64,000 nucleotides of DNA from an uncultured virus (IMG/VR IMGVR_UViG_3300023371_000086) (lineage: Duplodnaviria; Heunggongvirae; Uroviricota; Caudoviricetes): the IMG/VR virus record IMGVR_UViG_3300023371_000086; one strand, written 5' to 3'. A program made the translations under genes and the position numbers. Under the pieces are notes generated by a model, which saw nothing but the letters and a program-made list of their open reading frames with translations, made no database searches and was not told the DNA's origin. Below, in pieces: positions 3,067-61,375 of this stretch (positions are counted from its first letter, which is position 1; the number at the start of each line of letters is the position of its first letter).

Positions 3067-3885
3067 TTATTCTCCTATGCATCCGAATGTCAATTCAAAC
3101 TCCCACCAGCTTCTACCTGAGTAATCAAAGTCTACAGAGTTGCAACTCTTGTAATAGACCTTTGTATCTCTGCCTTTCCATGATATTGTCCTTTCTCCTT
3201 CTTTCGTGAGGTTCAAGAACAGTGCATCACGTTTATTCCAGAAGTCAGCCTTGTCATCAGACCTCATAATCAGCCTAAATCTCACATCGCCCCTTTCAAC
3301 ATAAATGCCTGACTCGTTCGAATGTTCCTGGCCATCACTGTAGTCTGACTCCTCAAGCTTATTTTCCTTCATTCTGATGTCCGGGAACAGACCATCTATA
3401 CTTCCTGAAAGCAGACATCCGTACTTGGAAACATCCACTCCGTCAAGCGATAATCCAACCAACTTCCCAGAGGATGAAGGCTCCACGTAAACAAGTCCTA
3501 CTCTTGGATCATCATCATACATGTCAACCTTAATGTTGCAGATTGAGCAAATCCTGCTTGCTCCTACATCGAAAACTCTGAGAGTGCGTGTCCTTTCGAT
3601 GTCTACCATTTCTACAGCATGGGTTCTCTTGGACATTATGAAGTCAACGAACGATTGAAGCATATCCATCGTTCCTTTCATCATGAATCTGAACGACATA
3701 TTATGGCTTTCAACACATGGAGAAGACAAGTCAACCTCTACATCATTGCTCTCGAACCATTCGTTCTTTTCCGGAGCCTTCATTTCAGAGAAGGCAGGAA
3801 CATCATCATAGCCTCCATCGACTATGTATGCTCCGTAAGTGGACTTGATGTCCACTCCATCTATGAGTACCTTTCCTGTTATCAT
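3067..3885 (-). CDS. Distal tail (Dit-like) protein
   Basis: 272 aa directly after the tape measure gene; internal duplication (IDGVDIKSTYG / LDGVDVSKYG). Confidence 0.6.
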   Translation of the reverse strand: MITGKVLIDGVDIKSTYGAYIVDGGYDDVPAFSEMKAPEKNEWFESNDVEVDLSSPCVESHNMSFRFMMKGTMDMLQSFVDFIMSKRTHAVEMVDIERTRTLRVFDVGASRICSICNIKVDMYDDDPRVGLVYVEPSSSGKLVGLSLDGVDVSKYGCLLSGSIDGLFPDIRMKENKLEESDYSDGQEHSNESGIYVERGDVRFRLIMRSDDKADFWNKRDALFLNLTKEGERTISWKGRDTKVYYKSCNSVDFDYSGRSWWEFELTFGCIGE

Positions 3886-6800
3886 AGCATTGTCACTCCT
3901 CTGTTCTTTATTACCTCTATATCACTGCTTATTGCTGCGATGTTTGTCGAAATGGTAGAGAGGTATGCCGTATTCCTTTCAATCGCCGTAAGCCTTGATA
4001 TGATTTGTGCGCTGTATGCTCCATTCTTCTTGCACTCCTCATTGATGGAGTATGTGTGACTCTGTATTGCTGTCAGCCTTGCGTTGTTTTCATCAACGCT
4101 CTCCTGCGATGCGGTTGCGATTCCTTTCTTTGAAGGTTCTCTATCGGGACCACCTTCATCCTCTCCTGAGAGTGCTCCACCAGTCACCTCGTCTACACCT
4201 GCCAGGTAATCGTTGATATGAGGAGCAAGCTCGTTCGCCTGCTCAAGAAGACCTGCAAGTATTGAGAGAGCACCTTCAGTATCACCAACAGCAACCAAAT
4301 CTGCCATCTGCTGTGCTGCTTCATCTGTGAAGATGCTTTCAAGCAACTTGGATTCAATAACAGCCTTTGCCATAGCCTTTGCATAGTCTCCTAGAACATC
4401 CTTGGCATTAGCAATAGCATTGCCGGTCTCTATCCAGGAATCAATCATGCTGTCTGCTACAGTGGAAGACATTGTACCGAACAGAGACTTGACATAGTCA
4501 TTTATCTCTGCCACTGTCTCACCGTAAGCCTCCCAATCAGCTATCATGCTTTCTACAGTCTGGCGAGTCTCGTCAGACAGACCTTCTCCATACGAATCCA
4601 ACCATGCTTTGAGACCTTCTGTATCAAGTGCACCGGATTCATCTATAAAGTCCGAAAGATTGGCAACATGGATATTTTCAACACCACTTCCCCAATACTT
4701 CTGCCAAGTGCTTCTCATGTCTGAAACAAGGGCTGTATCACCTTGAGCCATTATCTCATCAAGCTTGTCTCTTACTTTCTTACTCAATGAAGCCCAAGAC
4801 CTGTCTGAGAACATGTCCATGTAATAGTCAGTGTAGTCGAATGTCGACATACTTCCAAGAGACTCTTTCAGCTCATCAAGCTTCTTCTTTGCTCCTTCTG
4901 ACTTTTCTATGAATTCTCCGAGTGCATCGTTTCCGAAAGCTGTATCATACTTCTCCTTGAGTTTCTGATCAGTCAATTCTTCCAGAGCTCTTCTATATTC
5001 GTCTGCTGCTTTTGCTGATGCTAGGTAAGCCTGCTTATTCTCCTCTGCTGCATTTGTAAAGAACTGAACAACCTTGATTGCTGCAGAGATTACAGCAAGC
5101 ACTGCAGAAGCCTTTTCTGCAGCAGAAGCAGCCTCTCCAATAGTCTTGATGCCATTTGCCATACCAACAGCCGCACTGGCAATTCCGCCTACTCCAGCAA
5201 GAACTTCTCCGGCTACTCCTGGGATGACATCTCCTAGTTCTCCGAACACTGAACCTGCATCGTTAATTACTTTTGACAGTTCAGTCCAGTTTGCCTTGCT
5301 TTCCTTAGTGGTGTCGTTCGAATTAGATATGGCTGTTTCAAGCGATTCGATTGCAGCCTCTGCCTGTGCTATCTCAAGTTCGTCAACACCTTCTGTATTC
5401 TTTAGAATAGAAAGTCTAGCCTTTGCAAGAGCCAACATCTTATTCAGCTCTGTAATAGCTATAGAAGATAACGAGTCAGCCCATGATTCGAAAGCATCAC
5501 TCTTATCTGCGTAGTTCTCAGCTACCTCCTCAATGGCTTCCTTCTTCTGGCGTTCAAGTTCTCTGACATTATCATCGTCGAATCCAGCCTTGAAAGTCTT
5601 TCCGTCTTCCTCGTACATCTTCTTACGCTTCTCATCGTATTCCTTCTCTATACGAGTGACAGCCTGCTGATAGGTCTCAAACTCTTTCAGAAGGTCCTGC
5701 AGTTCTTCCTTGATCTTATCACTCTTTTCCTTGTTGGCTTCGTTGATTTCGATATCAGCCATCTGCTTTTCAACCTCTACCATTCTTGCGAAACTTTCCT
5801 CAAGCTCCTTGGTATCCTTACCGGCTGCTTCGTAGATAGCCTTGTATGCCTCAAGCTCATCATTGAGAGCATCAATCTTCTCGTCTCTCTCAAGTTCTAT
5901 GAGCTTTATTTCATCGTCTGTCTGAGCCTTCTTAAGGTCATACTCTGCCTTTCTTGAAGCCTCAGCGACCTTCTCTGCTGTCTGCTGTGCCTTCTTGATG
6001 GCATTTTCCTCATATTCTTCTTCCTTTGGCTTATTCTTGTCTCTGTTAGCCTTAATCTGAGCAAGGAATGAGTCCACGTTGGCTATGGCATCAGTAATCT
6101 GCTGCTCTGTAGCGAATGTGATGTCCTCTCCGGAAACAAGCGAATAATCCTGCTCCTGCTTTGTCTCCTTGAACTTACTGAGGATTTCGGCAAGATCCTT
6201 CTTTGTCTGATTCAACTGCTCCTCAGTCAGAGTCTTCAGACCTTTATTGAAGTCGGATGTATCAGCACCAAAACCAAACATGGTTCTAGCATTGTTGATG
6301 AACTCATCCTGCTGAACATTCAGGTCATTGAGGTCAGCTATGTAGTCACGGATAGGATTCTGAATGGCTGTGAACTTCTTGCCAGTGTTATCAGTTCCCT
6401 TGAGCACCTTGTCGAAACTCTTGATGACATTCTCAGTCTCCTGGTCAAGAGCTTCGCCCTGGAAGATGTTCTTCCATATCTTCGAATACGTGCGAGCTGC
6501 ATCTTCTGTGCTTATGCCTTTGGCTCCGTAGATAGTCTCCTGGAGCTTCTTGAGCTTACCAGTGACATCCTTGTCATATCTCTCGGTCTCCTCCTCTACA
6601 TACTTGTCGTACATCCTTGCGTTAGCTGAATCCTGTATAGCCTTTGCAAGGACATCGTACTTTGTAGAAAGGTCTCCAACTCTCTCTATCTCATCAGCAA
6701 GAGTTGAATCGTACTTACCGAAGTTCTTGACAATCTCATCCTTGATTTCGTAGTATTCTGCAGAACCTTTCTTGGCAGCAGACAATCTGCCTTTGAGTTC

Positions 6801-8030
6801 ATCAAGCTTCTTGATCTCCGAACCGGCAGAAGCAGATGCCTCAGAGAAAGCATCGTTCAATCGTTTCTGTGCCTTCTCTGCCTCAGTCTGATATGTAATG
6901 AGCTTGTAGATACCGAAACCTAGTGCAGTTACAGCTGCTGCTGCAAGTACATAAGGATTGGTCAAGGCTTTGCCAAGACCCTTCATGGTAGTGAGAAGCT
7001 TCTTCTTTGCTTCAGTGAGAAGCTTTGTAGCTGCTGCAGCTTTAGCCTGCTGTATGGTGAGGTTATGATGCTGTGCTGCTACAATACCAATCTCAACAGC
7101 AGCTCTCTCCATTACCATAGTGTGAACCTTCTGAACAGCTGTAGTTGCTACAAGCGCTGCTCTATAGGTTCCATAAACACCTGCTATCTCAACTATGATG
7201 CGACCTACCTTTTCGTAGTTATCTATGAGGGTGGAAGCTGTCTGAATTGCACCAGATGCAAGACCTTGCGTCTTGGTACCAATCTCATTCAGCATCATGT
7301 CCCAGGCATCCTCAAGGTTGCTTATCTGACCGGTGAGAGAGCTTGACTGCTTCTCCATGAGGTTGTAGAACTTACCTCCTTCGTTGGTCATTGCGTGGAT
7401 AGCCTTCTCAACTTCAGGGAAGCCAACCTTACCTTCTGTAACAAGCTCACCAATTTTATCCTTGGTGACACCGAACTGCTTTGCAAGCTCATCAGCCAAT
7501 GGAATACCACGACCCATGAACTGCCTCAAATCCTGCGTAAACAGACGACCCTGTGTCATAGTTGTGCCATAAAGGTACACAAGGTCATTCAACGGAATCG
7601 ACAGTCCGGAAGCGATGTTTCCAAGCCTTACAAGGGTTTCGTTTACTTCCTCCGATGCTGTACCATAAGCAAGGAGCTGTTTTGCTCCATGTGCTATATC
7701 AGAAAGACCGAATGGAGTCTTTGCTGCGGTTGCTGTCAACTGTGCCATAAGAGCATCAGCCTTCTCCTGGCTTCCAAGCATTGTCTCCATTGCAATACCT
7801 AGCTGCTGGTATTCGCCTCTTACTCTTACTATATCAGAAATCAGCTTGGTAGCAGTGAATCCTGCTCCAAGTGAAGCTATCCCACTTCCAAGCTTCTTGA
7901 AGATAGCCTCCATTTCATTGCCTTCTTTCTCTACTTTCTTCGTGGTCTCAGAAACCTTATCCTGCACCTGACGAACCTTGTTGAGAAAGTCTCTATTGTC
8001 TGCTGTGATATGAAACTCCAAACCTGCCAT
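3882..8030 (-). CDS. Tail tape measure protein
   Basis: 1382 aa, Ala/Lys/Glu-rich helical; tape-measure motifs AAKTPF, LGNIASG, QDLRQFMGRGIP, GQISNLEDAW. Confidence 0.95.
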   Translation of the reverse strand: MAGLEFHITADNRDFLNKVRQVQDKVSETTKKVEKEGNEMEAIFKKLGSGIASLGAGFTATKLISDIVRVRGEYQQLGIAMETMLGSQEKADALMAQLTATAAKTPFGLSDIAHGAKQLLAYGTASEEVNETLVRLGNIASGLSIPLNDLVYLYGTTMTQGRLFTQDLRQFMGRGIPLADELAKQFGVTKDKIGELVTEGKVGFPEVEKAIHAMTNEGGKFYNLMEKQSSSLTGQISNLEDAWDMMLNEIGTKTQGLASGAIQTASTLIDNYEKVGRIIVEIAGVYGTYRAALVATTAVQKVHTMVMERAAVEIGIVAAQHHNLTIQQAKAAAATKLLTEAKKKLLTTMKGLGKALTNPYVLAAAAVTALGFGIYKLITYQTEAEKAQKRLNDAFSEASASAGSEIKKLDELKGRLSAAKKGSAEYYEIKDEIVKNFGKYDSTLADEIERVGDLSTKYDVLAKAIQDSANARMYDKYVEEETERYDKDVTGKLKKLQETIYGAKGISTEDAARTYSKIWKNIFQGEALDQETENVIKSFDKVLKGTDNTGKKFTAIQNPIRDYIADLNDLNVQQDEFINNARTMFGFGADTSDFNKGLKTLTEEQLNQTKKDLAEILSKFKETKQEQDYSLVSGEDITFATEQQITDAIANVDSFLAQIKANRDKNKPKEEEYEENAIKKAQQTAEKVAEASRKAEYDLKKAQTDDEIKLIELERDEKIDALNDELEAYKAIYEAAGKDTKELEESFARMVEVEKQMADIEINEANKEKSDKIKEELQDLLKEFETYQQAVTRIEKEYDEKRKKMYEEDGKTFKAGFDDDNVRELERQKKEAIEEVAENYADKSDAFESWADSLSSIAITELNKMLALAKARLSILKNTEGVDELEIAQAEAAIESLETAISNSNDTTKESKANWTELSKVINDAGSVFGELGDVIPGVAGEVLAGVGGIASAAVGMANGIKTIGEAASAAEKASAVLAVISAAIKVVQFFTNAAEENKQAYLASAKAADEYRRALEELTDQKLKEKYDTAFGNDALGEFIEKSEGAKKKLDELKESLGSMSTFDYTDYYMDMFSDRSWASLSKKVRDKLDEIMAQGDTALVSDMRSTWQKYWGSGVENIHVANLSDFIDESGALDTEGLKAWLDSYGEGLSDETRQTVESMIADWEAYGETVAEINDYVKSLFGTMSSTVADSMIDSWIETGNAIANAKDVLGDYAKAMAKAVIESKLLESIFTDEAAQQMADLVAVGDTEGALSILAGLLEQANELAPHINDYLAGVDEVTGGALSGEDEGGPDREPSKKGIATASQESVDENNARLTAIQSHTYSINEECKKNGAYSAQIISRLTAIERNTAYLSTISTNIAAISSDIEVIKNRGVTML

Positions 8031-8816: not shown

Positions 8817-9317
8817 TTATGCCTTAGCCTGTGAAACAGACGTGATAGACTTTCCGTCTGCACCTCTTTCGATAGTGACAACACCCCACTCAACCTGAGA
8901 GCCTTCGTTAGGCTGCAGAGCATCGTGAGTGTAGACAATTGCTCCACCCTCTGCTGTTGAATAGGTATCCTCTGCTGAAACAACAGACTTCTTGATCATG
9001 ATACCAGGAACAGTAGGGTCCTCCGGCTGAACAGCTACAGCATACTCACCTTCAACAACACCATCAAGTGCAGCGAAAGGCATTGTCTTGCCCTTTGCAA
9101 CACGAATCTGATATGCGAGTGCGTATGTGTTTCTTCCGTACTTTACATCCTCGTTGGCACCACCCTCAAGCTTTGCTTCTGTCTTGTCGCCTTTGGTGGT
9201 AGTGAGGCTTGTAGTATCCTCAGCAGGTGTAGGAACCTCTGACCATGTGGTAGGCTCTCCGCTTGCATCAAGCTTCGAGATTACGATAGTGGGTCTTCCC
9301 CAACCGATAACTGCCAT
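8817..9317 (-). CDS. Major tail (tube) protein
   Basis: 166 aa, MAVIGWGRP...EDTTSLTTTKGDKTEAKLEGG; position in tail module. Confidence 0.75.
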   Translation of the reverse strand: MAVIGWGRPTIVISKLDASGEPTTWSEVPTPAEDTTSLTTTKGDKTEAKLEGGANEDVKYGRNTYALAYQIRVAKGKTMPFAALDGVVEGEYAVAVQPEDPTVPGIMIKKSVVSAEDTYSTAEGGAIVYTHDALQPNEGSQVEWGVVTIERGADGKSITSVSQAKA

Positions 9318-9342
9318 AGTAAAACTTACTTTTTTTGATTAC

Positions 9343-9774
9343 TTACTCCGTGCATACATTCACACGAATCTTATGATTGATTGCGTGGAAATCTTCTCCG
9401 TTGACTTCGTACAGCTTTTGAGACTCAAGCTTGTACCTTAATCCGAATTCCTGTCTTCCGGTTTCGTCTGAAGCATAGACAACTACTCCTTCTTCAAGGA
9501 TGTCAAGACACTTTCTCATAAGCGGCTTGACTCTGTCATCGTTGTATATGAACTCTTTTCCTCTCTTGATGTCCGGAACATAGACATTGATATTGAGTAT
9601 GAAAGGCTGAATCTGACCTGCTCCTGTAGCAAGAACCGAAATGACTACATCCTCTACCTTGGAATTGAGAGGGCGTCTGTCTCTGTAGACAGAACCACTG
9701 ATCATCCTTGACAGTTCGGATGCTTTAATGAGCGTAAAGAACGCCTCCTTTATTTCGATTTCTGACAGTATCAT
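9343..9774 (-). CDS. Tail terminator / completion protein
   Basis: 143 aa, RPLNSKVEDVVI...NINVYVPD; synteny. Confidence 0.6.
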   Translation of the reverse strand: MILSEIEIKEAFFTLIKASELSRMISGSVYRDRRPLNSKVEDVVISVLATGAGQIQPFILNINVYVPDIKRGKEFIYNDDRVKPLMRKCLDILEEGVVVYASDETGRQEFGLRYKLESQKLYEVNGEDFHAINHKIRVNVCTE

Positions 9775-10241
9775 TTCTTGAACTTACCTATCTGCTCGTC
9801 TATTCTCTTTATCATCTTCGGGAGTTCTCTTTCTACGAAAAGGGATGAAGAAGCAAGCACATCCTTATTCTCCATCTCCTCCACGTAGGAAGCGTAGTTC
9901 ATACCTGCTACGACTATGAGGACATACTTTCCTGGGTAGTCTTTCGCCACTTCTGCAGCGAATTCCTTTCCTTCGCTAGGACCTTCTGTACCATCTAGAA
10001 TCTGGGAGAAGCCTCCCCTTCTTACGATACCTCCATCCTTTGCTATGACATAACCTATTGAAGACCTTAGGTTTCCAGTCTGGTCATACCAGCTTTCTGC
10101 ACCTGTCCTGTTCCTTGCGTAAATCACTGCCTCCTCTCCGAGCCTTTGAAGGTTGCGAATCACAACCTTGTCCATCCTTTCGATTGAGCTCTTGATGTAC
10201 TCCTGGATTTCAGACATTTCGGTCTTGCATTTTATAGCCAT
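9771..10241 (-). CDS. HK97 gp10-like tail/neck protein
   Basis: DQTGNLRSSIGY and AGMNYASYVE motifs. Confidence 0.8.
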   Translation of the reverse strand: MAIKCKTEMSEIQEYIKSSIERMDKVVIRNLQRLGEEAVIYARNRTGAESWYDQTGNLRSSIGYVIAKDGGIVRRGGFSQILDGTEGPSEGKEFAAEVAKDYPGKYVLIVVAGMNYASYVEEMENKDVLASSSLFVERELPKMIKRIDEQIGKFKK

Positions 10242-10555
10242 AGCTTTGCGTTTAACTGTCCTCTGTGGAATCCGTGTGAGGTAAACTTTCCTCTGCTCAC
10301 TCCTGACTGATCGAACAATTCGACTTCATCACCGTAGGAAATCTCCGGGCAATCTGAATCTAGATAGACCATGTAGGAATACATATAGACACTGCCATCT
10401 TCTAGAGCTATGGTATTGGCTCTGCCGTTTGGCTCGTATCTACAAGGGATTCCTTCTATAGTCTTCTCACCTCCCTTGATGTACTTTCCGGTGCCATCGT
10501 AGGCACCGGGAAGCGACACCTTTAGTGTGAGATTGTGAGGTCTGAAATTAACCAT
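10232..10555 (-). CDS. Head closure / head-tail adaptor
   Basis: 107 aa; synteny between connector and gp10-like gene. Confidence 0.55.
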   Translation of the reverse strand: MVNFRPHNLTLKVSLPGAYDGTGKYIKGGEKTIEGIPCRYEPNGRANTIALEDGSVYMYSYMVYLDSDCPEISYGDEVELFDQSGVSRGKFTSHGFHRGQLNAKLWL

Positions 10556-10872
10556 TACCAGTCAAGGGGTTTTACAGTGGGAGTCTCTAGACCAAAGAGC
10601 GGCTCTCCGTATTTTCCGTAGATACCATTCGCTATGGAAATCATCGACGACTTGTCGTTGAAAGATATGCTGACACCACCTTCTGAAACATTAGGTGTCA
10701 TGACAACAGTCTTGATAATGTCAGCCTTGGCAAGTTCGAATGGCTTACTAGATGCACTGAATGCATCGAATTCATTGTCAAGAACTAGTCCTCTTGAGAT
10801 TGCTATTACCTCAAGCTCACCATCATTGACATAGAATGGAAACGATTTACGGAGGGCTTCTCTTACAGTCAT
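10555..10872 (-). CDS. Head-tail connector protein
   Basis: 105 aa after capsid gene; PNVSEGGVSIS motif. Confidence 0.6.
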   Translation of the reverse strand: MTVREALRKSFPFYVNDGELEVIAISRGLVLDNEFDAFSASSKPFELAKADIIKTVVMTPNVSEGGVSISFNDKSSMISIANGIYGKYGEPLFGLETPTVKPLDW

Positions 10873-10888
10873 AAAGCTACACTACTAC

Positions 10889-12013
10889 TTAGGCTTTTGC
10901 TACTTCTCCGTTAGCCCACTCAGAGTTCTCAGTATTGAGGAACATCAAGCTTGAGCGATTGATAAGGGCAGGCTGCACGTATGCCTCTGCCATTGTCACC
11001 TCAAGCATAGGGTTAACCTCTGAGTACCTTGTGGTCTTATAGAATCCACCGTAAGCCTGGAGGGCTTCTGTGTTAGGAACCTGCGGAACAGTCTTGTACC
11101 ATGTCCAACCGAGCTGTGCAGTAAGAGAGAGTACAACAACGTTCTCAGCCCAAGGCTTAACTGTAGTCTCGCTTCCGTCCTTCGCCTGGATAGTAACCCA
11201 AGTGTCAAGGATAGCGATTCTAGGCATGCCCTTGCTTGAGAGGTAGTTGTTGATGTTCTCAAGGGTAACACGCTCTGCTGTGAAGATCATGTCGTTCTTG
11301 AGAGCTGCTGCTGTGAACAGTCTCTTTGCAGTCTTCTCCTGTGCGCAGAGGTAGTCGAAAGCCTGCTGCTCCATGAATGCGTAAGCAGGAGCCTTCTTGC
11401 CAGCCTTCTTGAGAGCTCTTACCATCTTCATGATGTCACCGAGACCATCGGCTGTAGGGTCAGACCACTTCACTGCTGTTCCGTGGAAATTCTCCTTCGG
11501 TACGTTGAAGTTGATGATGTCCTCTGTTGCGTTCTCACCGTCAACCTCCTTAGTGTAGGTCTTTACTCCGTGAGAAGCGATACGCATGGCATCAAGCTCA
11601 ACTCTTGCATCCATACCATTGTTACAGAACTCTACGTCATCGTAAATCATGTCAACGAGATACTGCTTTGCAGCCTTGTCTGTATCAGCTGCAGCAGCGA
11701 TACGCTTAAGGTCGTTGTACTCATTGATTTCGATTTCGTCTTTCTCCCTAGAGATTGCAATCTTCTCAAGAGTACCACTCCATGAGCCGATTGTCTTTCT
11801 GCTCTTGAGAGGTGCCTTAGTGTTGAATGCAACTCTGTCGGCAGAGATAGGAATACCCTCCTTACCTTCGATTCCCTTAAGGTCAAACTTAGGGGTGTAT
11901 CGGAGTGGGAAAAGGTCTCTCCAGGCAAATCCGTTACCTGGAACATACGAATCGACCTCAGCCTGAAGACTAGGCTGGTCGATGTCCATCAGTGGTTTGT
12001 TCATTGTACCCAT
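10889..12013 (-). CDS. Major capsid protein (lambda gpE-like, HK97 fold)
   Basis: 374 aa; LFP..., INFNVP...KWSDPTADGLGDI; follows scaffold and decoration genes. Confidence 0.85.
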   Translation of the reverse strand: MGTMNKPLMDIDQPSLQAEVDSYVPGNGFAWRDLFPLRYTPKFDLKGIEGKEGIPISADRVAFNTKAPLKSRKTIGSWSGTLEKIAISREKDEIEINEYNDLKRIAAAADTDKAAKQYLVDMIYDDVEFCNNGMDARVELDAMRIASHGVKTYTKEVDGENATEDIINFNVPKENFHGTAVKWSDPTADGLGDIMKMVRALKKAGKKAPAYAFMEQQAFDYLCAQEKTAKRLFTAAALKNDMIFTAERVTLENINNYLSSKGMPRIAILDTWVTIQAKDGSETTVKPWAENVVVLSLTAQLGWTWYKTVPQVPNTEALQAYGGFYKTTRYSEVNPMLEVTMAEAYVQPALINRSSLMFLNTENSEWANGEVAKA

Positions 12014-12019
12014 ACTACA

Positions 12020-12583
12020 CTACACTTTTGAGATTCCTTTCATCTGAGCCACCACCTCGTCAGCGACAGGTGCTGTCTCCTTGCGAATGTTTGCTCCGTT
12101 GACGAGCTTAACCATGAAGTCACCTGAGTTTGCAGGGACATCATCACCGACCAGATAAACTGGAACAACAGAGAGAGCTGCTGTTGCTGTTGAACCATCG
12201 GCTGCTGCGGTTGCCTGATAGAGCACCTGTCCGGCCTTTACTTCAACTCCGAGTGAAATTGTAAGCACATCATAGTTTGGATCAGTTGTAACCACCTTAG
12301 TGACCTTTACGGCCTTCTTGCCTGTGGCAAGGAAATCACCGGATACTACTGCTGAACCCTTCTTAACCTTGATGGTTGTGGCTTCTGCTGTAGCGTCCTC
12401 ATAGAGCATCGGTGCCTTGATGACCTGATACTTTCCAGCTGCGTTAAGACCGGCAGCCATACCCTCCTTCACATCGAAGTCGTGGTTGGCAAGCAGTCCA
12501 CCGCCTGGCTTCTCAGCAAAAATCTGCTCGAAGACGATTGGCTTCGGAGCAGGAGCTTCTGTGTGAGCGAATTTTACTTCCAT
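12020..12583 (-). CDS. Head decoration protein
   Basis: 187 aa beta-rich, between scaffold and capsid genes. Confidence 0.55.
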   Translation of the reverse strand: MEVKFAHTEAPAPKPIVFEQIFAEKPGGGLLANHDFDVKEGMAAGLNAAGKYQVIKAPMLYEDATAEATTIKVKKGSAVVSGDFLATGKKAVKVTKVVTTDPNYDVLTISLGVEVKAGQVLYQATAAADGSTATAALSVVPVYLVGDDVPANSGDFMVKLVNGANIRKETAPVADEVVAQMKGISKV

Positions 12584-12627
12584 TTGGACTTACTTTTATT
12601 TGATTGATTACGGGCCTTACTCCAGAA

Positions 12628-13311
12628 TTACTCTAGACCCTTTATTGCAGACTTGGTTTCAACTGCCTTTCTTGCTTCTGCCCTTGCTACAACACCTTCG
12701 TTTGGCTTTGTTGGCTTTGGACCACCTCCTGGAGGGATAACATCTGCCATAGCCTTGATGTTCTTGTCTGTACAGAACTCTGTCCAGTCATTCATTACTT
12801 CTGAGACATAGGTGTCGACATCTTCCTGCTTCTCGAAGGTCTTTCCCTTAAGGTCTCTGTAGAATCTTGGATCGACATCCTTAAGACTTGAGAGAGCACT
12901 AGCCATAAAGCCTTCATTGGCTTTCTCCTGGCTCATCTGATTGAACCTGTCATTGGTAGCCTTCTTGTCTGATTCGTACTTCTCCTGGAAAGCTTTGAAC
13001 CATGCAGGGGCTTCATCTACAGGTGGGTCAGCTGGCTTCGGTGGCTCAGGCTGCGGTGTTGGTGTTGGTTTTGGCTTGTTCTCATCTTCGAATTTCGCCT
13101 TCATTCGTTCGTAAGACCGATTGGCGGCACTCTGAGAGATTTTCAAGAATGGCAGAGAAGCTTCGATTCTAGCATCGATTGCTTCATCTGTGGCTTCCTC
13201 TTCGGAACTGAAACCATTTGCTATAGACTCGCACACAGTCATCAGCTCATCTTTACTGAATCCGTAGGACTTAGCCTTCGGCTCCAGTCTGGTAAATACC
13301 TTGTTCTTCAT
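12628..13311 (-). CDS. Capsid scaffolding protein
   Basis: Charged helical protein with Pro-rich linker (KPKPTPTPQPEPPKP) and PAWF motif; start revised to 13311 (MKNKVF) because the longer frame spans the promoter. Confidence 0.65.
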   Translation of the reverse strand: MKNKVFTRLEPKAKSYGFSKDELMTVCESIANGFSSEEEATDEAIDARIEASLPFLKISQSAANRSYERMKAKFEDENKPKPTPTPQPEPPKPADPPVDEAPAWFKAFQEKYESDKKATNDRFNQMSQEKANEGFMASALSSLKDVDPRFYRDLKGKTFEKQEDVDTYVSEVMNDWTEFCTDKNIKAMADVIPPGGGPKPTKPNEGVVARAEARKAVETKSAIKGLE

Positions 13312-13414
13312 TTCTTTTAACTTACTTTTTTTATTATAGGGTCTGCTATCTTGAGAACAGCAGACCCCTAGCCAGTAAGTTATGAAAGGTAGTAGCCTAC
13401 TTTTCTGGAATAGC
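13312..13414 (-). promoter_or_regulatory. Structured 5' leader of the head/tail operon
   Basis: Hairpin GGGTCTGCT/AGCAGACCC plus a 9-bp inverted repeat (13318-13326 vs 13374-13382) covering the start-region motif. Confidence 0.55.
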
Positions 13415-13420
13415 TTGCGA

Positions 13421-13458
13421 CAAAGGTATAAAAAAAGTGTTGCAAAATGCAACACTTT
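13421..13458 (-). promoter_or_regulatory. Promoter with palindromic operator (head operon)
   Basis: Bacteroidetes -7 element TACCTTTG (13421-13428) and perfect inverted repeat AAAGTGTTGCA-AAA-TGCAACACTTT (13434-13458). Confidence 0.7.
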
Positions 13459-13535
13459 CTAAAAGATTTTATTGCTCAACTTGTTTTTACTGACCTATTT
13501 AGGCTAAAACAGCCACTTTCATGGGGTAACTTTGC

Positions 13536-13910
13536 CTAAAAACTCCGGTCTCTGTCTTTCAATGCAAAGAAAGCTTCATCCATCATTTCTATGAGACCCT
13601 TGACCTCATCTTCGGTGCAAACAACACTCACATCTATGATTTCCGATAGTGACCTCGCCACATAGGTAGCAGTCTCATCAGACACAGAAACGAACGAGCC
13701 TCCGTTCCTTGAACTTGCATTCTTGACCTTGATCTGGAGCAATCCCAGGTCTGCAGTGATAGTCTGCGAATACTTGTGACCATGCCTGTTCAACCTGCCT
13801 ACAATCTTCTGAACACACTCTGCTATCTGTTCGTTGTTGTATGACTCATGCATTGCGTATGCCTCCTCCTGGAGGAGTTCCATCGCCATATCATATACTC
13901 TGTTTCCCAT
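13536..13910 (-). CDS. Hypothetical protein
   Basis: 124 aa ORF in a tightly packed minus-strand array. Confidence 0.7.
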   Translation of the reverse strand: MGNRVYDMAMELLQEEAYAMHESYNNEQIAECVQKIVGRLNRHGHKYSQTITADLGLLQIKVKNASSRNGGSFVSVSDETATYVARSLSEIIDVSVVCTEDEVKGLIEMMDEAFFALKDRDRSF

Positions 13911-13912
13911 AA

Positions 13913-14071
13913 CTAAAATGCCGGCTTCATCCTTACCAATCTCAATACTTCTTTCAGCTCACTGTCTGTGTACCTTTCTGCCATTCCACGTGTGACTCCA
14001 TTCACATTCATGGTTATTTCGATTGCCCTCTCTCTTGAGACCAATCGCTGATTCGTGTTTACTCTATCCAT
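13913..14071 (-). CDS. Small hypothetical protein (52 aa)
   Basis: Read by hand (MDRVNTNQRLVSRERAIEITM...); fills the gap between neighbours. Confidence 0.6.
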   Translation of the reverse strand: MDRVNTNQRLVSRERAIEITMNVNGVTRGMAERYTDSELKEVLRLVRMKPAF

Positions 14072-14074
14072 GCC

Positions 14075-14395
14075 TTACTCTCCTTCTATGTAACAGTAGT
14101 CAATCTCCCAAGAACTGAGGTAAAAGTCAAGCCTTATTCCTTCCTCTGAACCATCCATGCAATCAGCGAAAATCGAATTACCACCAAGACCTGGGATGAA
14201 ATACTTGTTGTCACTAACGAACTGATAGGACCTTGACTCTAGGCTGTAATCTTTGCCTGGCCAGTTATCTTCCTTGAAAACAACAACTCCTACTAGTCTG
14301 TTAGACTTTGAGGCAGAATACTGGCTTGTCACCTTTTTCTCCTCGTTGTGCTTAACGAACCTTTTGTACACCTGTTCAAATGTCAACTTCTTCAT
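14075..14395 (-). CDS. Hypothetical protein
   Basis: 106 aa; AGTAAGTT-ATG start motif. Confidence 0.75.
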   Translation of the reverse strand: MKKLTFEQVYKRFVKHNEEKKVTSQYSASKSNRLVGVVVFKEDNWPGKDYSLESRSYQFVSDNKYFIPGLGGNSIFADCMDGSEEGIRLDFYLSSWEIDYCYIEGE

Positions 14396-14419
14396 AACTT
14401 ACTTTGTTTTGGGTTTATA

Positions 14420-14704
14420 CTAAATACATTCTTTCATCATGTGGTAAACTTCGTCTCCCCATTCATAGCTCAACTTAGAAAGCATAATATTGTCTAGGAA
14501 CAGTTCGGTGGAGATAATGTATGCACCTTGCTTTTGAGCACCTTGTAGCTCCTTATAGACTTCTTCGAAAGGCTTGCCATCTATGTTAAGGGCGAAGTAC
14601 CTTGCTATCTCTATCTTGGCTTCGATTCTCCTGCCCTTTTCATTCAACATCTTCCACCTGTTGATTCTTGGGGTAAGAATCTTACTCAACAGCTTCTCAT
14701 TCAT
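14420..14704 (-). CDS. Hypothetical protein
   Basis: 94 aa ORF in array. Confidence 0.7.
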   Translation of the reverse strand: MNEKLLSKILTPRINRWKMLNEKGRRIEAKIEIARYFALNIDGKPFEEVYKELQGAQKQGAYIISTELFLDNIMLSKLSYEWGDEVYHMMKECI

Positions 14705-14707
14705 GGC

Positions 14708-14887
14708 TTAGTCCTTTCTATAAAGGTCTGACTTCGGATCGAGAATCATTCCAATGATGTACATCGCTCCTCCGGTAAACAAACAGTGCTTTCCTGCTGT
14801 GAAGCCACCAATCACACAAACGGCAACAAGGGCATATGCAATAAACGCAGGGATTCTTTCACGTGGGATTCTTCTAACTTTCTTCAT
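14708..14887 (-). CDS. Small membrane protein (59 aa)
   Basis: Read by hand: MKKVRRIPRERIPAFIAYALVAVCVIGGF...; hydrophobic segments; AAGTAAGTT upstream. Confidence 0.6.
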   Translation of the reverse strand: MKKVRRIPRERIPAFIAYALVAVCVIGGFTAGKHCLFTGGAMYIIGMILDPKSDLYRKD

Positions 14888-14981
14888 ACAACTTACTTTT
14901 TTACTATCTTTGCAGGGCTGGAGAATGAAATCTTAATCTTCAGCGAGGGGAGAGCCGGAAACTGACCCCTCGCCCTTGGCA

Positions 14982-15041
14982 CTAGTAGTTAGTAACTACA
15001 AATGTCCATCTGCCAAGTCTGATAGAGATTCTTATTCTCAT
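14982..15041 (-). CDS. 19-aa basic/hydrophobic peptide MRIRISIRLGRWTFVVTNY (candidate type I toxin)
   Basis: Read by hand; downstream of promoter 15162-15194 and followed by a GCGAGGGG/CCCCTCGC hairpin. Confidence 0.5.
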   Translation of the reverse strand: MRIRISIRLGRWTFVVTNY

Positions 15042-15097
15042 AACAGCGAAGATTAAGTTCCGGAGGACAAATTCTTAAGGCGTTCCTCCACTACCTC

Positions 15098-15128
15098 GCC
15101 TCTTCCCTTGGGAGAGGCTTTCTTTTTT
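15098..15128 (+). terminator. Intrinsic terminator
   Basis: GCCTCTTCC-CTT-GGGAGAGGC followed by TTTCTTTTTT. Confidence 0.7.
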
Positions 15129-15161
15129 CCAGCTTTTCAAAGAACTTTCTTTTAGCTAATG

Positions 15162-15194
15162 TAAAGGTACGCATAAATGTTTTTCAACGAGCCA
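15162..15194 (-). promoter_or_regulatory. Phage promoter, TGGCTCGTTG-N15-TACCTTTA class
   Basis: Motif repeated with identical spacing at five loci. Confidence 0.7.
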
Positions 15195-15261
15195 TTGTAA
15201 AACATTATTTTTCAATGATTTAACAAGTTTTTACATTGGTCTCAGCTACGTTCTGAATGAC

Positions 15262-15296
15262 AAACAAAAAGGGTGGGGACTATCCGTCCCTACCCT
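15262..15296 (-). terminator. Intrinsic terminator
   Basis: AGGGTAGGGAC-GGATA-GTCCCCACCCT then TTTTGTTT on the minus strand. Confidence 0.7.
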
Positions 15297-15473
15297 GACA
15301 AGAAAACTCCTCTACCAACGCCTTCATATAGATTAACGAACTCAACATCGCAAAAGACAAAACACGTGCCATACATCACACAACTTATTGCTACTCTTGC
15401 ACTTGAATCCCTTTTTATATGAGCAAACTGAGAAAGCCTGGGGACCTTCACAGCCGTCATAACCACCTGACTA

Positions 15474-15719
15474 CTAGTGAGTTGAATCACAGCCAATCTC
15501 CATTCCACCTTCTGGGCTTCCGAACGGACAGATAACTCTTATCTTCTCACTGCACATGTAATAGCAGCTATCAAGATCAAAACCAAGCCCTCCTTGACTT
15601 ATAGGTGCCTGAATAAATGCTGCAACATCGTTGTTGAAGTCACGTTCAACAATCTTTTCGTCAGCTTTCAGAAGTATCACTTCACTTACGCTGTAATCCA
15701 AAATTGCAATGTCTACCAT
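15474..15719 (-). CDS. Hypothetical protein
   Basis: 81 aa ORF in array. Confidence 0.7.
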   Translation of the reverse strand: MVDIAILDYSVSEVILLKADEKIVERDFNNDVAAFIQAPISQGGLGFDLDSCYYMCSEKIRVICPFGSPEGGMEIGCDSTH

Positions 15720-15730
15720 ATCTTATTGAC

Positions 15731-16327
15731 TTACTTGAAACACTTTTCTTCTGCGAACGAGTAGCACACGCCTTCATTCGTAACCATCACATGGTCTGTA
15801 AGAGCAATGCCAACTGAACTCAATGCATTCTTCACACTTCTGACCTTATCTATCACATCCCTACTTGGAAGCAGGTCTTCATCCTTACAACTTTGTGCTA
15901 ATATGGCAGCTTCTCCTTTGTTTTCAATCACATTCTTGCAGATGTACATTGGGGCAAATCTTGAAAATTCGAACTTTCCGAAGAAGCATGCATCAATGCT
16001 CTTGATACAATGCATTCTGTCTAAAGTGATACACCACACCTCGTCTCTGTACTCCTCGCGCCCTGCCAGAACTGATCTGAGTATAGGGACAACATCTTCT
16101 ACTCCCCTTATTGGAGCAGGTTGATTGTAGACTCTTAATCTTTCATAAAGACCAATAGCGGCCTTTACAACTGGCTGTTGGGTTGGAGATACATTGCCTA
16201 TGATTGCCTCCAATGGAAGCGTTTGGTACTTCTTCATCTCCACTCCTAGGATGCCGGCTAGTTCGTGAGTCTCCTTTTTTCTGTACTCTGACATCATGTC
16301 GTCAAACAACTTCGACTTCTTTTCCAT
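15731..16327 (-). CDS. RadC-like JAB-domain protein with degenerate active site
   Basis: EVWCITLD...AAILAQSC...LLPS...VGIALTDHVMV...YSFAEE layout of RadC; the HNHPSG motif is replaced. Confidence 0.7.
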   Translation of the reverse strand: MEKKSKLFDDMMSEYRKKETHELAGILGVEMKKYQTLPLEAIIGNVSPTQQPVVKAAIGLYERLRVYNQPAPIRGVEDVVPILRSVLAGREEYRDEVWCITLDRMHCIKSIDACFFGKFEFSRFAPMYICKNVIENKGEAAILAQSCKDEDLLPSRDVIDKVRSVKNALSSVGIALTDHVMVTNEGVCYSFAEEKCFK

Positions 16328-16354
16328 AACTTACTTTTCTTTGAGCCGTTACAC

Positions 16355-16621
16355 TTAAACTGCTATTACCGGAGTGACAACTGCCTTGAACTTGCATCTT
16401 CTATACTTTGCGATGTCAAGCATATCAGCAACCGTGCCGAAACACTCCGTCTTGATACGAAAACAGTTCTTTCCACATTCGCCCTGGCTCACAAACTCAA
16501 ATCTTGCCGATTCTTCTATGAATACCTTGGCTATCTTCTTTGCGTTGTCAAGGTCCTGCGCATACACCTCGGTGTCTACAATCACAGCAGGATCCATGCT
16601 GATGTTTCCAATCTTCTTCAT
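16355..16621 (-). CDS. Hypothetical protein
   Basis: 88 aa ORF in array. Confidence 0.7.
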   Translation of the reverse strand: MKKIGNISMDPAVIVDTEVYAQDLDNAKKIAKVFIEESARFEFVSQGECGKNCFRIKTECFGTVADMLDIAKYRRCKFKAVVTPVIAV

Positions 16622-16640
16622 TTCTTTCTCTACTTCTGTT

Positions 16641-16859
16641 CTACAGTCTGTTTATATCGTTATAATGGAGAACTTCTCCTTCTTCAAAACCTTCTTCGAT
16701 GTTGCTTTCAAAAAGCTCCTTGAGAGATAGCCATCCGTGACGGATCGAACCTTTCAACTCCTGATACTTCTCATCTGCTACATCCTTGTCTGAAAACAAT
16801 CTTCTTTTCTTCTTACCTTCAAGAGTGAGATACCACTCCAACAAATACAACTTGCTCAT
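16641..16859 (-). CDS. Hypothetical protein (resembles 36399-36641)
   Basis: 72 aa; shared LY.L.W...R.F.DK..A pattern. Confidence 0.7.
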   Translation of the reverse strand: MSKLYLLEWYLTLEGKKKRRLFSDKDVADEKYQELKGSIRHGWLSLKELFESNIEEGFEEGEVLHYNDINRL

Positions 16860-16871
16860 ATCTTTATCAAT

Positions 16872-17141
16872 CTAAAATTCAAAATGCACAAGACCAATCT
16901 CCTTCGCCAAAACTTCAATATCTTGTATCCTTTTTACTCTCCTAGGAATTACTGTGCCGTTTTCAGACTTACTATAACTTATAGGACCAGGAACTCTCTT
17001 TCCGTCATTCCTTCTGACAATATCAGCGTACTTAAGCGTATAATATGATACACCTCTGTAGTCTGTCACGTAATCTGCCAAAAGCACCTTCTTGAAATAT
17101 TTGTCGTAAACTGCGACATGCTTCAAATTGGACTCTATCAT
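16872..17141 (-). CDS. Hypothetical protein
   Basis: 89 aa; AGTAAGTT-ATG; TACCTTTA element at 17166-17173 upstream. Confidence 0.7.
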   Translation of the reverse strand: MIESNLKHVAVYDKYFKKVLLADYVTDYRGVSYYTLKYADIVRRNDGKRVPGPISYSKSENGTVIPRRVKRIQDIEVLAKEIGLVHFEF

Positions 17142-17253
17142 AACTTACTATTTTGATTTCTTATGTAAAGGTAAGCATGAATTTTGAATTACCGACACAT
17201 AACATGCTGATTTTATGCAAGTTATGACATTTTTATTCAAAATGAACTTTTCA

Positions 17254-17649: not shown

Positions 17650-17688
17650 AACTCTACTTTTTTCTATAAAAATATAAATCTATAAAAC

Positions 17689-17847: not shown

Positions 17848-17850
17848 AAC

Positions 17851-18012: not shown

Positions 18013-18015
18013 AAT

Positions 18016-18500: not shown

Positions 18501-18504
18501 ATCT

Positions 18505-18807: not shown

Positions 18808-18809
18808 AT

Positions 18810-19370: not shown

Positions 19371-19405
19371 AACTTACTTTCTTTAAGGCATCGAATTCGA
19401 TGCGG

Positions 19406-19720: not shown

Positions 19721-19723
19721 GAT

Positions 19724-59798: not shown

Positions 59799-60065
59799 AT
59801 GCCATCTACTCAAATACCAAAGGCTGCCATTGATATAAATGCAAGATTCTTCCAGGCTGTTGACTACCTTGTGGAAACAAGGAGAATCAGAGGACTTGGA
59901 ACTATAGCTACATTATGGGATGTAAGCCGCTTCTCTCTCACATGGTCAAAGAATCATCCTGAAGAAAAGCGACTCAAGATTGAATACATATATTATATAG
60001 CGAGGGACTACAACATATCACTGAACTGGCTCTTTTTCGGAAAGGGCGAAATGATTGAACCATGA
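59799..60065 (+). CDS. HTH DNA-binding protein
   Basis: RFF.A...ISLNWLFFGKGEM. Confidence 0.65.
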   Translation: MPSTQIPKAAIDINARFFQAVDYLVETRRIRGLGTIATLWDVSRFSLTWSKNHPEEKRLKIEYIYYIARDYNISLNWLFFGKGEMIEP

Positions 60066-61375
60066 TCTGCTTCTATCTCACTAACAGAGGGCGAGAAAAG
60101 TCGCCTATCAAAATGGAGATATACTTCAAGGGTAAGCACTACTCTAAGTATATCGGCGAGAGCGTGGACACAGCAATGTGGAACACAAAGAAGCAGGTAT
60201 CAAGGGTAACATCATCGTATCCGGAAGGCTCTCTAATCAATTCGCAGGTAGAAAAGTGGAGAACGGCAGCTTCCGAGACAATCGAACATTTCAAGGACAG
60301 GATGTCGCCTCCTTCTTCTGACGAATTCAAGGAAGAACTTGAAAAGCGAAGATTCAAGGACGGATACAGAACTCCTACGTCTTTGGTGGACTATTTCGAC
60401 ACATTCATAAAAAGGTATGAGAAAACAAGGTCTCCAGGACGAGTGAAGCACTACAGGCTTGCAAAAAACATCGTCACTGAATATCAGTCTGAAAAGAAAG
60501 TTACATTACGCTTCGAAGACATCAACCAGGACTTCTATAACCGGTTCACAGAATGGTTCTACTTGAAAGGTCATTCTGCAAACTACCTTGGGGAGACAAT
60601 AAAGGTCCTTAAGCTCGTTATCAACGAAGCAATGATAGTTGATAAGCTCCACTCAAATATTGACTTCAAAAGCCGTGGATTTTTGGCTCCTTCATCCCAG
60701 GTGGACAGCATCTACCTTACCGAAGACGAGCTTTTAAAGCTTCACAACCTTGAAATCAATGAAACAACAATTCAAGAAAGTTTCAACGGAATAGACATTT
60801 GGCAGACACAGCGAAAGATAAAGGCTTACACAAAGGCAAGGGACATGTTTCTAATCGGAGCATTCACCGGACTGCGAGTATCAGACTACTCTAGGCTTCT
60901 TCCTGAGAACATCACAGACAAGGTGAGGATACAAGCAAAGAAGACAGGCATCAAGTCAGTCATTCCTATTCATTGGGTGGTCCAGGAAATCATCGACAGA
61001 GGATACGACTTCTCAACAACAATGACCGATCAGAAGCTTAACAAGCACATCAAGGAAGTGGCGAAGCTTGCCGGCATTTCCGAAGAAGTCACCTACACAA
61101 AGAACGTGGGAGGAAAAGCTGTGCAGTTATCTTCTCCGAAGTATGAACTGATAAGCAGTCACACTGCCAGGCGTTCGTTTGCAACCAATGCATACAAGGC
61201 AGGAATACCGACTGTCTCAATAATGAAGATTACCGGACACAAGAAAGAAAGCACATTCCTCAAGTACATAAAAATCTCCGAGGAGGAAAATGCCGAAATG
61301 CTTATGACGCATTCTTTCTTCACGAAGCCAAATGCAGAGGGAAACGCAGAGGTAAAAAACAATGACGAAACTTAG
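60062..61375 (+). CDS. int: Tyrosine integrase
   Basis: TGLRVSD, KTG, SHTARRSFATN, TGH, FLKYI catalytic motifs. Confidence 0.95.
   Translation: MICFYLTNRGREKSPIKMEIYFKGKHYSKYIGESVDTAMWNTKKQVSRVTSSYPEGSLINSQVEKWRTAASETIEHFKDRMSPPSSDEFKEELEKRRFKDGYRTPTSLVDYFDTFIKRYEKTRSPGRVKHYRLAKNIVTEYQSEKKVTLRFEDINQDFYNRFTEWFYLKGHSANYLGETIKVLKLVINEAMIVDKLHSNIDFKSRGFLAPSSQVDSIYLTEDELLKLHNLEINETTIQESFNGIDIWQTQRKIKAYTKARDMFLIGAFTGLRVSDYSRLLPENITDKVRIQAKKTGIKSVIPIHWVVQEIIDRGYDFSTTMTDQKLNKHIKEVAKLAGISEEVTYTKNVGGKAVQLSSPKYELISSHTARRSFATNAYKAGIPTVSIMKITGHKKESTFLKYIKISEEENAEMLMTHSFFTKPNAEGNAEVKNNDET

Follow-up and report, generated by a model that had tools for sequence, protein, structure and literature searches.

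A head-operon leader antisense to a shared phage start motif and its predicted pairing with the scaffold gene's own initiation region

A temperate phage in which many genes begin at one short motif carries, in the leader of its head operon, a single copy of that motif in reverse complement, which raises the question of what the antisense copy does and on which messenger it acts. We studied it in a stretch of 64,000 nucleotides (nt) from an uncultured virus of the Caudoviricetes (IMG/VR record IMGVR_UViG_3300023371_000086), hereafter the window, which is a temperate tailed-phage genome with nearly all genes on the minus strand. The leader precedes the first gene of the head operon, a scaffold-like gene of 227 amino acids (aa) at 12628..13311 on the minus strand (ATG 13311..13309), and the antisense copy, hereafter the anti-motif, lies within it at 13384..13374. 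The anti-motif is predicted to pair with the translation initiation region (TIR) of the scaffold-like gene itself, in an architecture common to the window and six related leaders. On the strength of these folds, we consider masking of scaffold translation in cis to be the probable primary function of the leader; the same explanation would make the operon that of the scaffold and major head proteins of a siphophage-like temperate phage, probably one with a Bacteroidota host.

The start motif and its antisense copy

The 11-mer AGTAAGTTATG has 21 exact copies in the window, against 0.04 expected, and none of 100 shuffles reached this number. Twenty of them lie on the minus strand between 57709 and 14403, each closing with the ATG of an open reading frame (ORF). 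A preliminary description of this DNA, made from the sequence alone, had put at least 20 genes behind the motif, and the number is exactly 20. The remaining copy is on the plus strand at 13374-13384, where it constitutes the anti-motif of the minus-strand leader (CAUAACUUACU in the leader RNA, CATAACTTACT on the gene strand). Direct reading and the motif count both confirmed that this segment and AGTAAGTTATG are exact reverse complements. No other exact copy of it occurs on the gene strand, where two further sites match at ≤2 mismatches. The scarcity of such sites on this strand (3 versus 57 on the other, at ≤2 mismatches) was not used as a signal because the imbalance follows from the motif copies themselves and from purine-rich coding strands.

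At the 20 genes, AGTAAGTT adjoins the ATG with zero spacing; this 8-mer has 29 copies in the window in total. At structural genes the motif core stands 4-6 nt upstream of the ATG (starts 13311, 12583, 9774, and 9317). Of the gene starts given by a crude ORF caller, 20 of 99 non-structural ones have the exact 11-mer in front of them, compared with 0 of 19 in the structural module (Fisher p = 0.04). The motif genes that can be named encode SbcC-like, RecT, SSB, an acetyltransferase-like protein, and a "DNA repair" protein, and 11 of the 20 have no PHROG match. The GUAAGU core of the motif equals the eukaryotic 5' splice-site consensus; this likeness is taken as coincidence, and there was no spliceosomal match in Rfam.

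The motif extends to two relatives with scaffold proteins of 33-40% identity, G002 and G003, which have 11 and 12 gene-strand copies of the 8-mer core, mostly as AGTAAGTTTATG and as AGTAAGTAAGTTATG, respectively. In five complete or near-complete genomes with a related major head protein (G005-G009), AGTAAGTT is at background, with 0-1 copies per strand. In G002 and G003, many of the genes that lack the motif show AGGAGG-like strings at 5-9 nt upstream of the ATG, and these two phages therefore seem to have two classes of initiation region. The host phylum Bacteroidota is said not to use Shine-Dalgarno pairing in the excerpted text of PMC7366714. Neither this leader nor the AGTAAGTT start motif turned up in the literature searches, which does not prove that they are undescribed.

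Predicted fold of the leader and its recurrence in relatives

On the minus strand, the leader reads CCAG-AAAAGTAG-GCTA-CTACCTTT-CATAACTTA-CTGG, followed by a hairpin GGGTCTGCT...AGCAGACCC and then by AAAAAAAGTAAGTTAAAAGAAATG. Direct reading agrees with the preliminary description on this layout, on the hairpin at 13368..13338, and on the scaffold gene's own AGUAAGUUA. The minimum free energy (MFE) structure is identical to the centroid and has three elements: a 5' hairpin GAAA.GUAG-GCUA-CUAC.UUUC (13384..13405, minus strand), a GC-rich hairpin with a 13-bp stem and the loop CUCAA (13338..13368, minus strand), and a long-range helix of 9 bp that encloses the latter. The 5' arm of this helix is UAACUUACU (13382..13374, minus strand), which is part of the anti-motif, and its 3' arm is AGUAAGUUA (13318..13326, minus strand), the copy of the motif core that belongs to the scaffold gene itself and stands 6 nt before its AUG. 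This structure has an MFE of -35.1 kcal/mol (z = -4.7 to -4.9), a stability equalled by 0 of 200 shuffles. The pairing of the anti-motif with the gene's own AGUAAGUUA, anticipated by the preliminary description, is thus predicted with a probability of 0.81, and forcing the anti-motif to be unpaired costs 9.9 kcal/mol (ddG).

The description had also proposed that two folds compete, the anti-motif bulging from the 5' hairpin in one of them. A balanced competition was not supported. Among the 616 suboptimal structures within 4 kcal/mol of the optimum, 615 retain seven or more of the 9 cis pairs. The CCAG:CUGG closure drawn in the description lies outside the MFE structure, and a fold forced to contain it is less stable by 7.5 kcal/mol for the full leader and by 2.4 kcal/mol for one truncated behind the GC hairpin. 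Because nearly all suboptimal structures keep the helix and the alternative fold is 7.5 kcal/mol worse, the leader is not, in thermodynamic terms, a balanced two-state switch. The anti-motif is unpaired with a probability of 0.11 in the full leader versus 0.79 in the truncated one. Behind the GC hairpin, the tail UAUAAUAAAAAAA (with UAUAAUAA directly behind the stem) is a poor U-tract, and the intrinsic-terminator scan did not list this hairpin, whose stem has no direct U-tract in the window. The search of the leader against Rfam gave no family at the gathering threshold, the best of 12 weak matches scoring 23.5 bits against a threshold of 50.

The annotated phage collection contained no close relative by DNA or protein, and a single scaffold protein used as query found no relative among the viral contigs. 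Scaffold homologues amount to 32 proteins, down to 34% identity, and a search with a scaffold alignment (A1) identified three relatives in viral contigs, four in metagenome contigs, and none in genome contigs. A search with the leader pattern returned 63 stretches, of which two were judged true by eye (G002 and G003), and a second pattern search gave the same two; the pattern had no match in genome contigs. The comparative set consists of the window and six related leaders (L011, L005/L009, L008, L010, L006, and L007). Their scaffold proteins are 94% identical to that of the window in L011 (over 32 residues at a contig end), 36-40% in L005/L009, L008, and L010, 33% in L006, and 28% in L007.

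All these relatives except L007 have the same order of elements: a palindromic -33 hairpin, a TAnnTTTG box, AGC at the predicted transcription start, and then AACTTACT, a GC hairpin of unrelated sequence, and a motif-like start region. The AACTTACT core is at the same place in the scaffold leaders of L005/L009, L008, L010, and L006 despite protein identities of 33-40%, and it is invariant in 6/6 aligned leaders. Given this conservation in distant relatives, sequence comparison indicates that the antisense feature is more than chance; the core that had been singled out in the window is kept in its relatives.

The predicted structures agree as well. All seven leaders have the same MFE and centroid architecture, i.e., a 5' stem and a helix between the anti-TIR arm and the TIR that encloses the GC hairpin (z from -2.1 to -5.4), and the arm is paired to its own TIR with probabilities of 0.66-1.00 at a ddG of 4.9-10.1 kcal/mol. 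When the 5' arm was shuffled, the observed pairing was reached in 0-1 of 100 cases for L005, L008, L010, L006, and L007. Because arm shuffles fail in these five distant relatives, we consider the predicted cis helix a well-supported trait of the family. In the distant relatives, the helix covers the AUG and the first codons through lineage-specific sequence: it is extended by AGUCUC:GAGACU in L005 and L008 and by CGUAAC:GUUAUG plus UUUCUUU:AAAGAAA in L006, and it includes the pairs UCCAU:AUGGA and CUUC:GAAAG in L007. The probability that the AUG is unpaired is accordingly graded, from 0.00-0.05 in L010, L006, and L007 to 0.34 in L008, 0.41 in L005, and 0.88 in the window. In L007, where AACUUACU is missing altogether, the predicted helix nevertheless covers the gene's own AUG, and the 12.8-kb record of L007 has no copy of the motif on either strand.

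Other parts of the leader vary between lineages. The relatives have a 5'-terminal stem AGCU..GGCU instead of the window's GAAA.GUAG hairpin, and the GC hairpin is found at the same place in 7/7 leaders with a different sequence in each. The tail behind it is U-rich in L005 (UUUUUAUU), L008 (UUUUAUAA), L006 (AUUUAUUA), and L007 (UUUUUAUUUU), with 4-5 U directly behind the stem in L005, L008, and L007 and roughly so in L006; it is weak in the window, L011, and L010.

The scaffold leader is not the only such site in the group. G003 (L016) has a further AACTTACT on the gene strand, intergenic and between hairpins, where UUCUAACUUACUU (3515..3503) is a perfect 13/13 complement of the start region of the next gene, AAGUAAGUUAGAA (3373..3361). 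The two arms span ~135 nt and have a canonical promoter (TTTG...TAGATTTG) between them, and the read-through RNA forms the 13/13 helix in both the MFE structure and the centroid (z = -7.6). Anti-TIR pairing would therefore be used more than once in this phage group, with gene-specific extensions.

A scan based on the major head protein delimited the distribution of these leaders. It gave 53 loci with 53-71% identity over the best segment (53-63% except for the 82-residue fragment L134), and 51 of them have no ACTTACT within 2.2 kb upstream, the exceptions being the locus of G002 and one in L085, where the site is an unrelated one. At 49 of these loci, which correspond to 38 distinct upstream regions, the position of the scaffold gene could be established, and a TAnnTTTG box precedes it in all. 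In 37 of the regions (all but that of G002), the scaffold leader is short, ~23-40 nt, and often starts with an AU-rich palindrome. In the short leaders of L082-L134, such palindromes stand right behind the -7 box (e.g., AAACTAATTAGTTT and TACAAATTTGTA) and may form 5' hairpins or serve as operators. In one sub-clade, then, the start motif and the long masking leader occur together, which is effectively one evolutionary event, and their co-occurrence therefore does not discriminate between action in cis and in trans.

Transcription of the leader and its genomic setting

The leader is preceded by a promoter of the Bacteroidota type on the minus strand. A TTG at -33 (13452..13450) and the -7 box TACCTTTG (13421..13428, of the form TAnnTTTG) are separated by a 21-nt spacer and fit the primary-sigma consensus, TAnnTTTG at -7 and TTTG at -33, given in the part of PMC7366714 that deals with it. 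The TTG lies inside a hairpin read from the sequence, GTGTTGCA-TTT-TGCAACAC (13437..13455, minus strand), which is followed by T7 (13436..13430) and looks like the intrinsic terminator of the upstream neighbour, a 124-codon gene at 13536..13910; the consensus terminator scan did not list it. This terminator/promoter hairpin is conserved in L005, L008, L010, L006, and L011. From the spacing after the -7 box and the AGC that follows the box in relatives, we predict that transcription starts at A13415 ± 2 (13413..13417, minus strand).

The build TTGCA..TGCAAC..TAnnTTTG is found at three promoters of the window (13452, 34688, and 27572), with leaders of 15-22 nt behind 34688 and 27572 versus ~105 nt behind 13452. 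The palindrome TTGCA-N-TGCAA itself recurs at 13437-13455, 58298-58310, 34688, and 27572, with three further copies in the virus record G001, and may serve at once to terminate the upstream gene and to bind a dimeric regulator as its operator. Between the arms of the helix (13374 to 13326) there is no TAnnTTTG box, hence no second promoter that would give unmasked transcripts in the window. An internal TACCTTT at 13391, which resembles the TACCTTTAC boxes of six other intergenic regions, was rejected as the main start, since relatives do not share it and one RNA contig reaches as far as 13403. Elsewhere in the window, a promoter-like cassette of ~60 nt (TGAAAAATAATG...TGGCTCG...TACCTTTACA) occurs on the minus strand at 37599, 23108, 20235, 17173, and 15169, and also at 46132. 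It precedes small genes at 14-23 kb and at 37-46 kb and looks like a second, phage-specific class of promoter.

Assembled metatranscriptome contigs of relatives 90-99% identical to the window, from four runs (X1, X2, X4, and X7) of two studies, cover 8818..13403. One of them (X7) spans 12912-13403 and stops at 13403 without a loose end, which places the leader, the hairpin 13338-13368, and the 5' end of the gene on one molecule. No contig of the four runs covers 13418 to ~14900, an absence that we do not count as evidence. The contigs thus hint, if weakly, at an RNA 5' end between 13403 and 13417; the hint is weak because contigs can show neither strand nor true ends. Together with the position of the promoter, they put the start upstream of 13384 rather than downstream of 13374. 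In the same data, strain variants have one-base insertions in the spacer between motif and AUG (13312-13320), behind 13314 (X7) and behind 13318 (X4), and the spacer of L011 is different from and longer than that of the window. To judge from these sequences, the spacer is evolving fast in the window's lineage.

The scaffold-like gene matches phrog_5824 (unknown function), and its product had no Pfam match above the cut-off. We call it scaffold-like by its position; as a lead only, its Atlas look-alikes are named DUF4355 or capsid assembly scaffolding protein and are commonest in Bacteroidota. Downstream of it are a gene of 187 aa and the major head protein gene (10889..12013, phrog_29), and the tape measure protein is at 3882..8030. 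Terminase, portal, and minor head protein are at 29-24 kb, and an integrase is at 60062..61375. About 10 kb of small genes (14000-23200, minus strand), many with the start motif and their own promoters, separate the portal/minor-head block from the scaffold gene. G002 has no such small-gene block, and one of its genes reaches right to the terminator/promoter hairpin upstream of the leader. The C-terminal part of the minor-head-protein-like gene (24361-26082, minus strand) matches PHROGs named ADP-ribosyltransferase (Bxa-type), and its neighbour (23236-24003, minus strand) matches an ADP-ribosylglycohydrolase PHROG. The virus record G001 (62,328 bases, 100% complete) is identical to the window across 361 tested bases around the leader.

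Masking in cis, its alternatives, and known systems

These elements suggest how the leader could act in cis, in a scheme of which we infer the transcription start, the fold in vivo, the lowered translation, and any relief. Transcription from the host-type promoter (TTG / TACCTTTG) would start at about 13415, as the RNA contigs weakly hint, and the leader would fold into the 5' hairpin, the stable GC hairpin, and the long-range helix around the latter. The anti-motif UAACUUACU would then pair with the landing site of the ribosome, AGUAAGUUA, and make the initiation region of the scaffold gene double-stranded, which would lower or gate its translation. The mask would be shorter and partial in the window and would bury the AUG and the first codons in the distant relatives. 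Candidates for its relief are a phage RNA-binding protein, the scaffold protein as an autoregulator, processing by an RNase, or titration of the anti-motif by early mRNAs that bear the motif. Of the cis translational switch put forward in the preliminary description, the pairing of the anti-TIR arm with the TIR stands as a prediction for the window and for 6/6 related leaders, and a balanced competition between its two folds does not.

Several observations weigh against this reading. In the window, the helix covers positions -17 to -9, so that the AUG is unpaired with a probability of 0.88 and positions -12 to -1 with one of 0.48, and 19 of 100 shuffled 5' arms (15 of 100 in L011) equal or exceed the observed pairing with the A-rich TIR. 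The earlier claim that the pairing blocks initiation in the window is therefore not borne out, and in the window's own lineage the predicted helix appears now to be short and, taken alone, statistically unremarkable. The anti-motif is also a better match for other messengers than for its own: its duplex with 20 other TIRs has -13.0 kcal/mol versus -9.0 kcal/mol with its own TIR, which ranks 28th of 118 (7th of 98 in G002 and 10th of 51 in G003). The AACUUACU core never varies while the core of the own TIR differs (AGUAAAUU in L005, AGUAAACU in L008, AGCAAGUU in L010, and AGUAACGUU in L006), and an invariant AACUUACU with a drifting TIR is poorly explained by a purely cis constraint. Finally, all folds are thermodynamic predictions, the RNA contigs have the limits given above, the comparative set represents only ~5 independent lineages, and MAFFT could not align the 3' arms for a formal covariation statistic.

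The affinity for other messengers is what an action in trans would explain, and the preliminary description had offered it as a second possibility. The leader, or a fragment set free from it by termination or processing at the hairpin, would pair, with the exposed anti-motif as its seed, with the shared AGUAAGUUAUG of ~20 non-structural mRNAs and shut their translation when the head operon is on; in the reciprocal version, early mRNAs would titrate the anti-motif and unmask the scaffold TIR. We consider the two, taken jointly, unlikely. The anti-motif can form 11 contiguous pairs, AUG included, with all 20 motif TIRs, and the mean duplex energy of -13.0 kcal/mol with these, versus -5.0 kcal/mol for 97 others, places all 20 among the top 25 of 118. 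The distribution of the motif between non-structural and structural starts and the recombination and replication genes among the named ones (SbcC-like, RecT, and SSB) fit such a role, as do the constancy of the AACUUACU core next to its drifting cis partner and the 5' untranslated region (5'UTR)-derived small RNAs of Bacteroides (PMC7366714, in the excerpt that treats them). In leaders cut after the hairpin, the anti-motif is 0.51-0.83 unpaired (0.79 in the window), and the 4-5 U directly behind the hairpins of L005, L008, and L007 give these the shape of small RNAs. Against this, the cis helix holds the anti-motif in 615 of the 616 suboptimal structures, and its ddG of 9.9 kcal/mol nearly cancels the -13 kcal/mol of the trans duplex. 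The window hairpin is followed by UAUAAUAAAAAAA, without the U-tract that would release a free leader, and the RNA contigs run through it; no short leader RNA was observed in these contigs, the only RNA data. Moreover, the anti-motif of G002 is out of register with that phage's own consensus CGAAAGTAAGTTTATG, which leaves ~9-10 contiguous pairs, and L007 keeps the leader design without any shared motif. A fully reciprocal early/late switch, in which early mRNAs pair with the anti-motif so that the scaffold is unmasked and the early TIRs, AUG included, are blocked in the same step, seems to us quite unlikely. If it were true, a single 11-nt RNA word would tie the beginning of head assembly to the shut-off of ~20 genes for recombination, replication, and accessory functions, in a phylum without initiation of the Shine-Dalgarno type.

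A different role would centre on the GC hairpin, as a promoter-proximal terminator that would end the majority of transcripts from the host-type promoter until a late factor of the phage permits read-through, with the pairing of the anti-motif being secondary. It would work as in lambda, where a promoter-proximal late terminator is overcome with the Q protein. A hairpin of similar strength and unrelated sequence at the same place in 7/7 leaders is what an attenuator would leave, 4/7 leaders (L005, L008, L006, and L007) have U-rich tails, and a near-consensus host promoter in a temperate phage (integrase at 60062..61375) needs a lock. Yet the window, L011, and L010 have only a weak tail, no gene for an antiterminator was recognised, and RNA-library contigs bridge the hairpin 13338-13368, even if contigs cannot show minor 3' ends. 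Attenuation would also leave unexplained why all lineages, even L007, keep an arm with complementarity to the TIR, and on balance we find it rather improbable.

It is very unlikely that the leader is a constitutive 5' stabiliser or a fixed-rate tuner without any switch, which would protect an abundant late mRNA from 5'-end-dependent decay. The 5'-terminal stems do begin at the predicted +1 in L005, L008, L010, and L006, the short scaffold leaders found with the major head protein also open with AU-rich palindromes behind the -7 box, and the mask of the window is partial. Nonetheless, masking of the AUG and first codons, as in L005, L008, L010, L006, and L007 (AUG unpaired 0.00-0.41), would be costly for a protein needed in hundreds of copies, and 51 of the 53 relatives found with the major head protein do without the long leader.

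That the plus-strand AGTAAGTTATG at 13374-13384 is instead a true gene start (of a 26-codon ORF at 13382..13462, divergent over the head promoter) or a DNA site read on either strand is barely credible: the match to motif plus ATG is exact, an open frame of 26 codons follows, and a promoter-like TTG-N19-TACTTTTT lies upstream on the plus strand, but the ATG is replaced by ACG in L005/L009 and L006, the frame has 8 codons in L008, the conservation pattern fits a promoter and RNA helices rather than a coding frame, and the 20 other copies have one orientation and each adjoin an ATG, which argues for a signal at the RNA level.

Masking of the scaffold TIR in cis thus remains the reading that we favour, and it bears on a field in which post-transcriptional control, in Bacteroidota and in their phages, is poorly known. 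If the phylum dispenses with Shine-Dalgarno pairing, as the excerpt of PMC7366714 has it, the question arises by what means its initiation regions are recognised or masked. The leader offers a compact, conserved, and tractable case, with a defined start motif that is not of the Shine-Dalgarno type, a natural antisense copy of it in cis, and natural variants that range from a partial mask (the window) to a full mask of the AUG (L006, L010, and L007). If the mask is regulated, it would be a late-gene checkpoint of a temperate gut phage. Leader and motif are also possible parts for the control of translation in Bacteroides.

The closest known systems are the T4 genes e (lysozyme), soc, 49, and I-TevI, in which the TIR is sequestered in an RNA helix, as described in the excerpted text of PMC3014915. 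The scaffold leader would resemble the e type, as far as that text describes it, in that an upstream segment of the mRNA would pair with the ribosome-binding site and/or the AUG and lower 30S binding, in the service of temporal control by a phage. Gene e, as laid out there, has a promoter between its two arms, which leaves promoter-proximal transcripts unmasked and masks only those that read through; the second site of G003 matches this layout. In the scaffold leader, unlike in gene e, both arms lie downstream of the only recognisable promoter, and every transcript would therefore carry the mask. The helix is moreover long-range and wraps a separate hairpin, the host belongs to the Bacteroidota, and the masked element is the phage's own AGUAAGUU motif rather than a Shine-Dalgarno sequence.

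Relief of such a mask has a precedent in the mom mRNA of phage Mu, whose translation-inhibition structure is opened by the Com protein, according to the excerpt of PMC6483171. Here too, the start signals of a late gene would be buried in a leader structure beside a hairpin. In Mu the relief comes from a trans factor that remodels the RNA; in the phages studied here, no Com-like protein or binding motif was identified, and the loops of the hairpin are unconserved among the seven leaders, which argues against a sequence-specific binder of the hairpin. The scaffolding protein of P22 is subject to translational autoregulation, as stated in the consulted part of bioRxiv 10.1101/2022.12.13.520362. 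The likeness is that a scaffold gene would be regulated post-transcriptionally in both phages; binding of the scaffold protein to its own leader would be hypothetical here. To our knowledge, no RNA operator has been defined for P22.

Two further systems bear on the action in trans. T4 RegA is a translational repressor of many early mRNAs, in the account excerpted from PMC3014915, and the parallel is that of one factor that recognises many early or middle initiation regions and shuts them off late. RegA is a protein, whereas the factor proposed here would be an RNA seed within the leader of a late operon; should the anti-motif work in trans as well, it would amount to an RNA counterpart of RegA. 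Bacteroides has 5'UTR-derived and terminator-ended small RNAs, as reported in the excerpt of PMC7366714. The leader shares with these a promoter, a 5' stem, a single-stranded stretch, and a GC hairpin, with a U-tract behind the hairpin in L005, L008, and L007; the window differs in that its hairpin has no U-tract and is read through in RNA contigs. We conclude that this is probably a TIR-masking leader, absent from Rfam, of a mechanism whose type is itself known from T4 gene e, and that it is set apart from the known systems also by a pairing arm that is the antisense of a motif common to 20 other genes.

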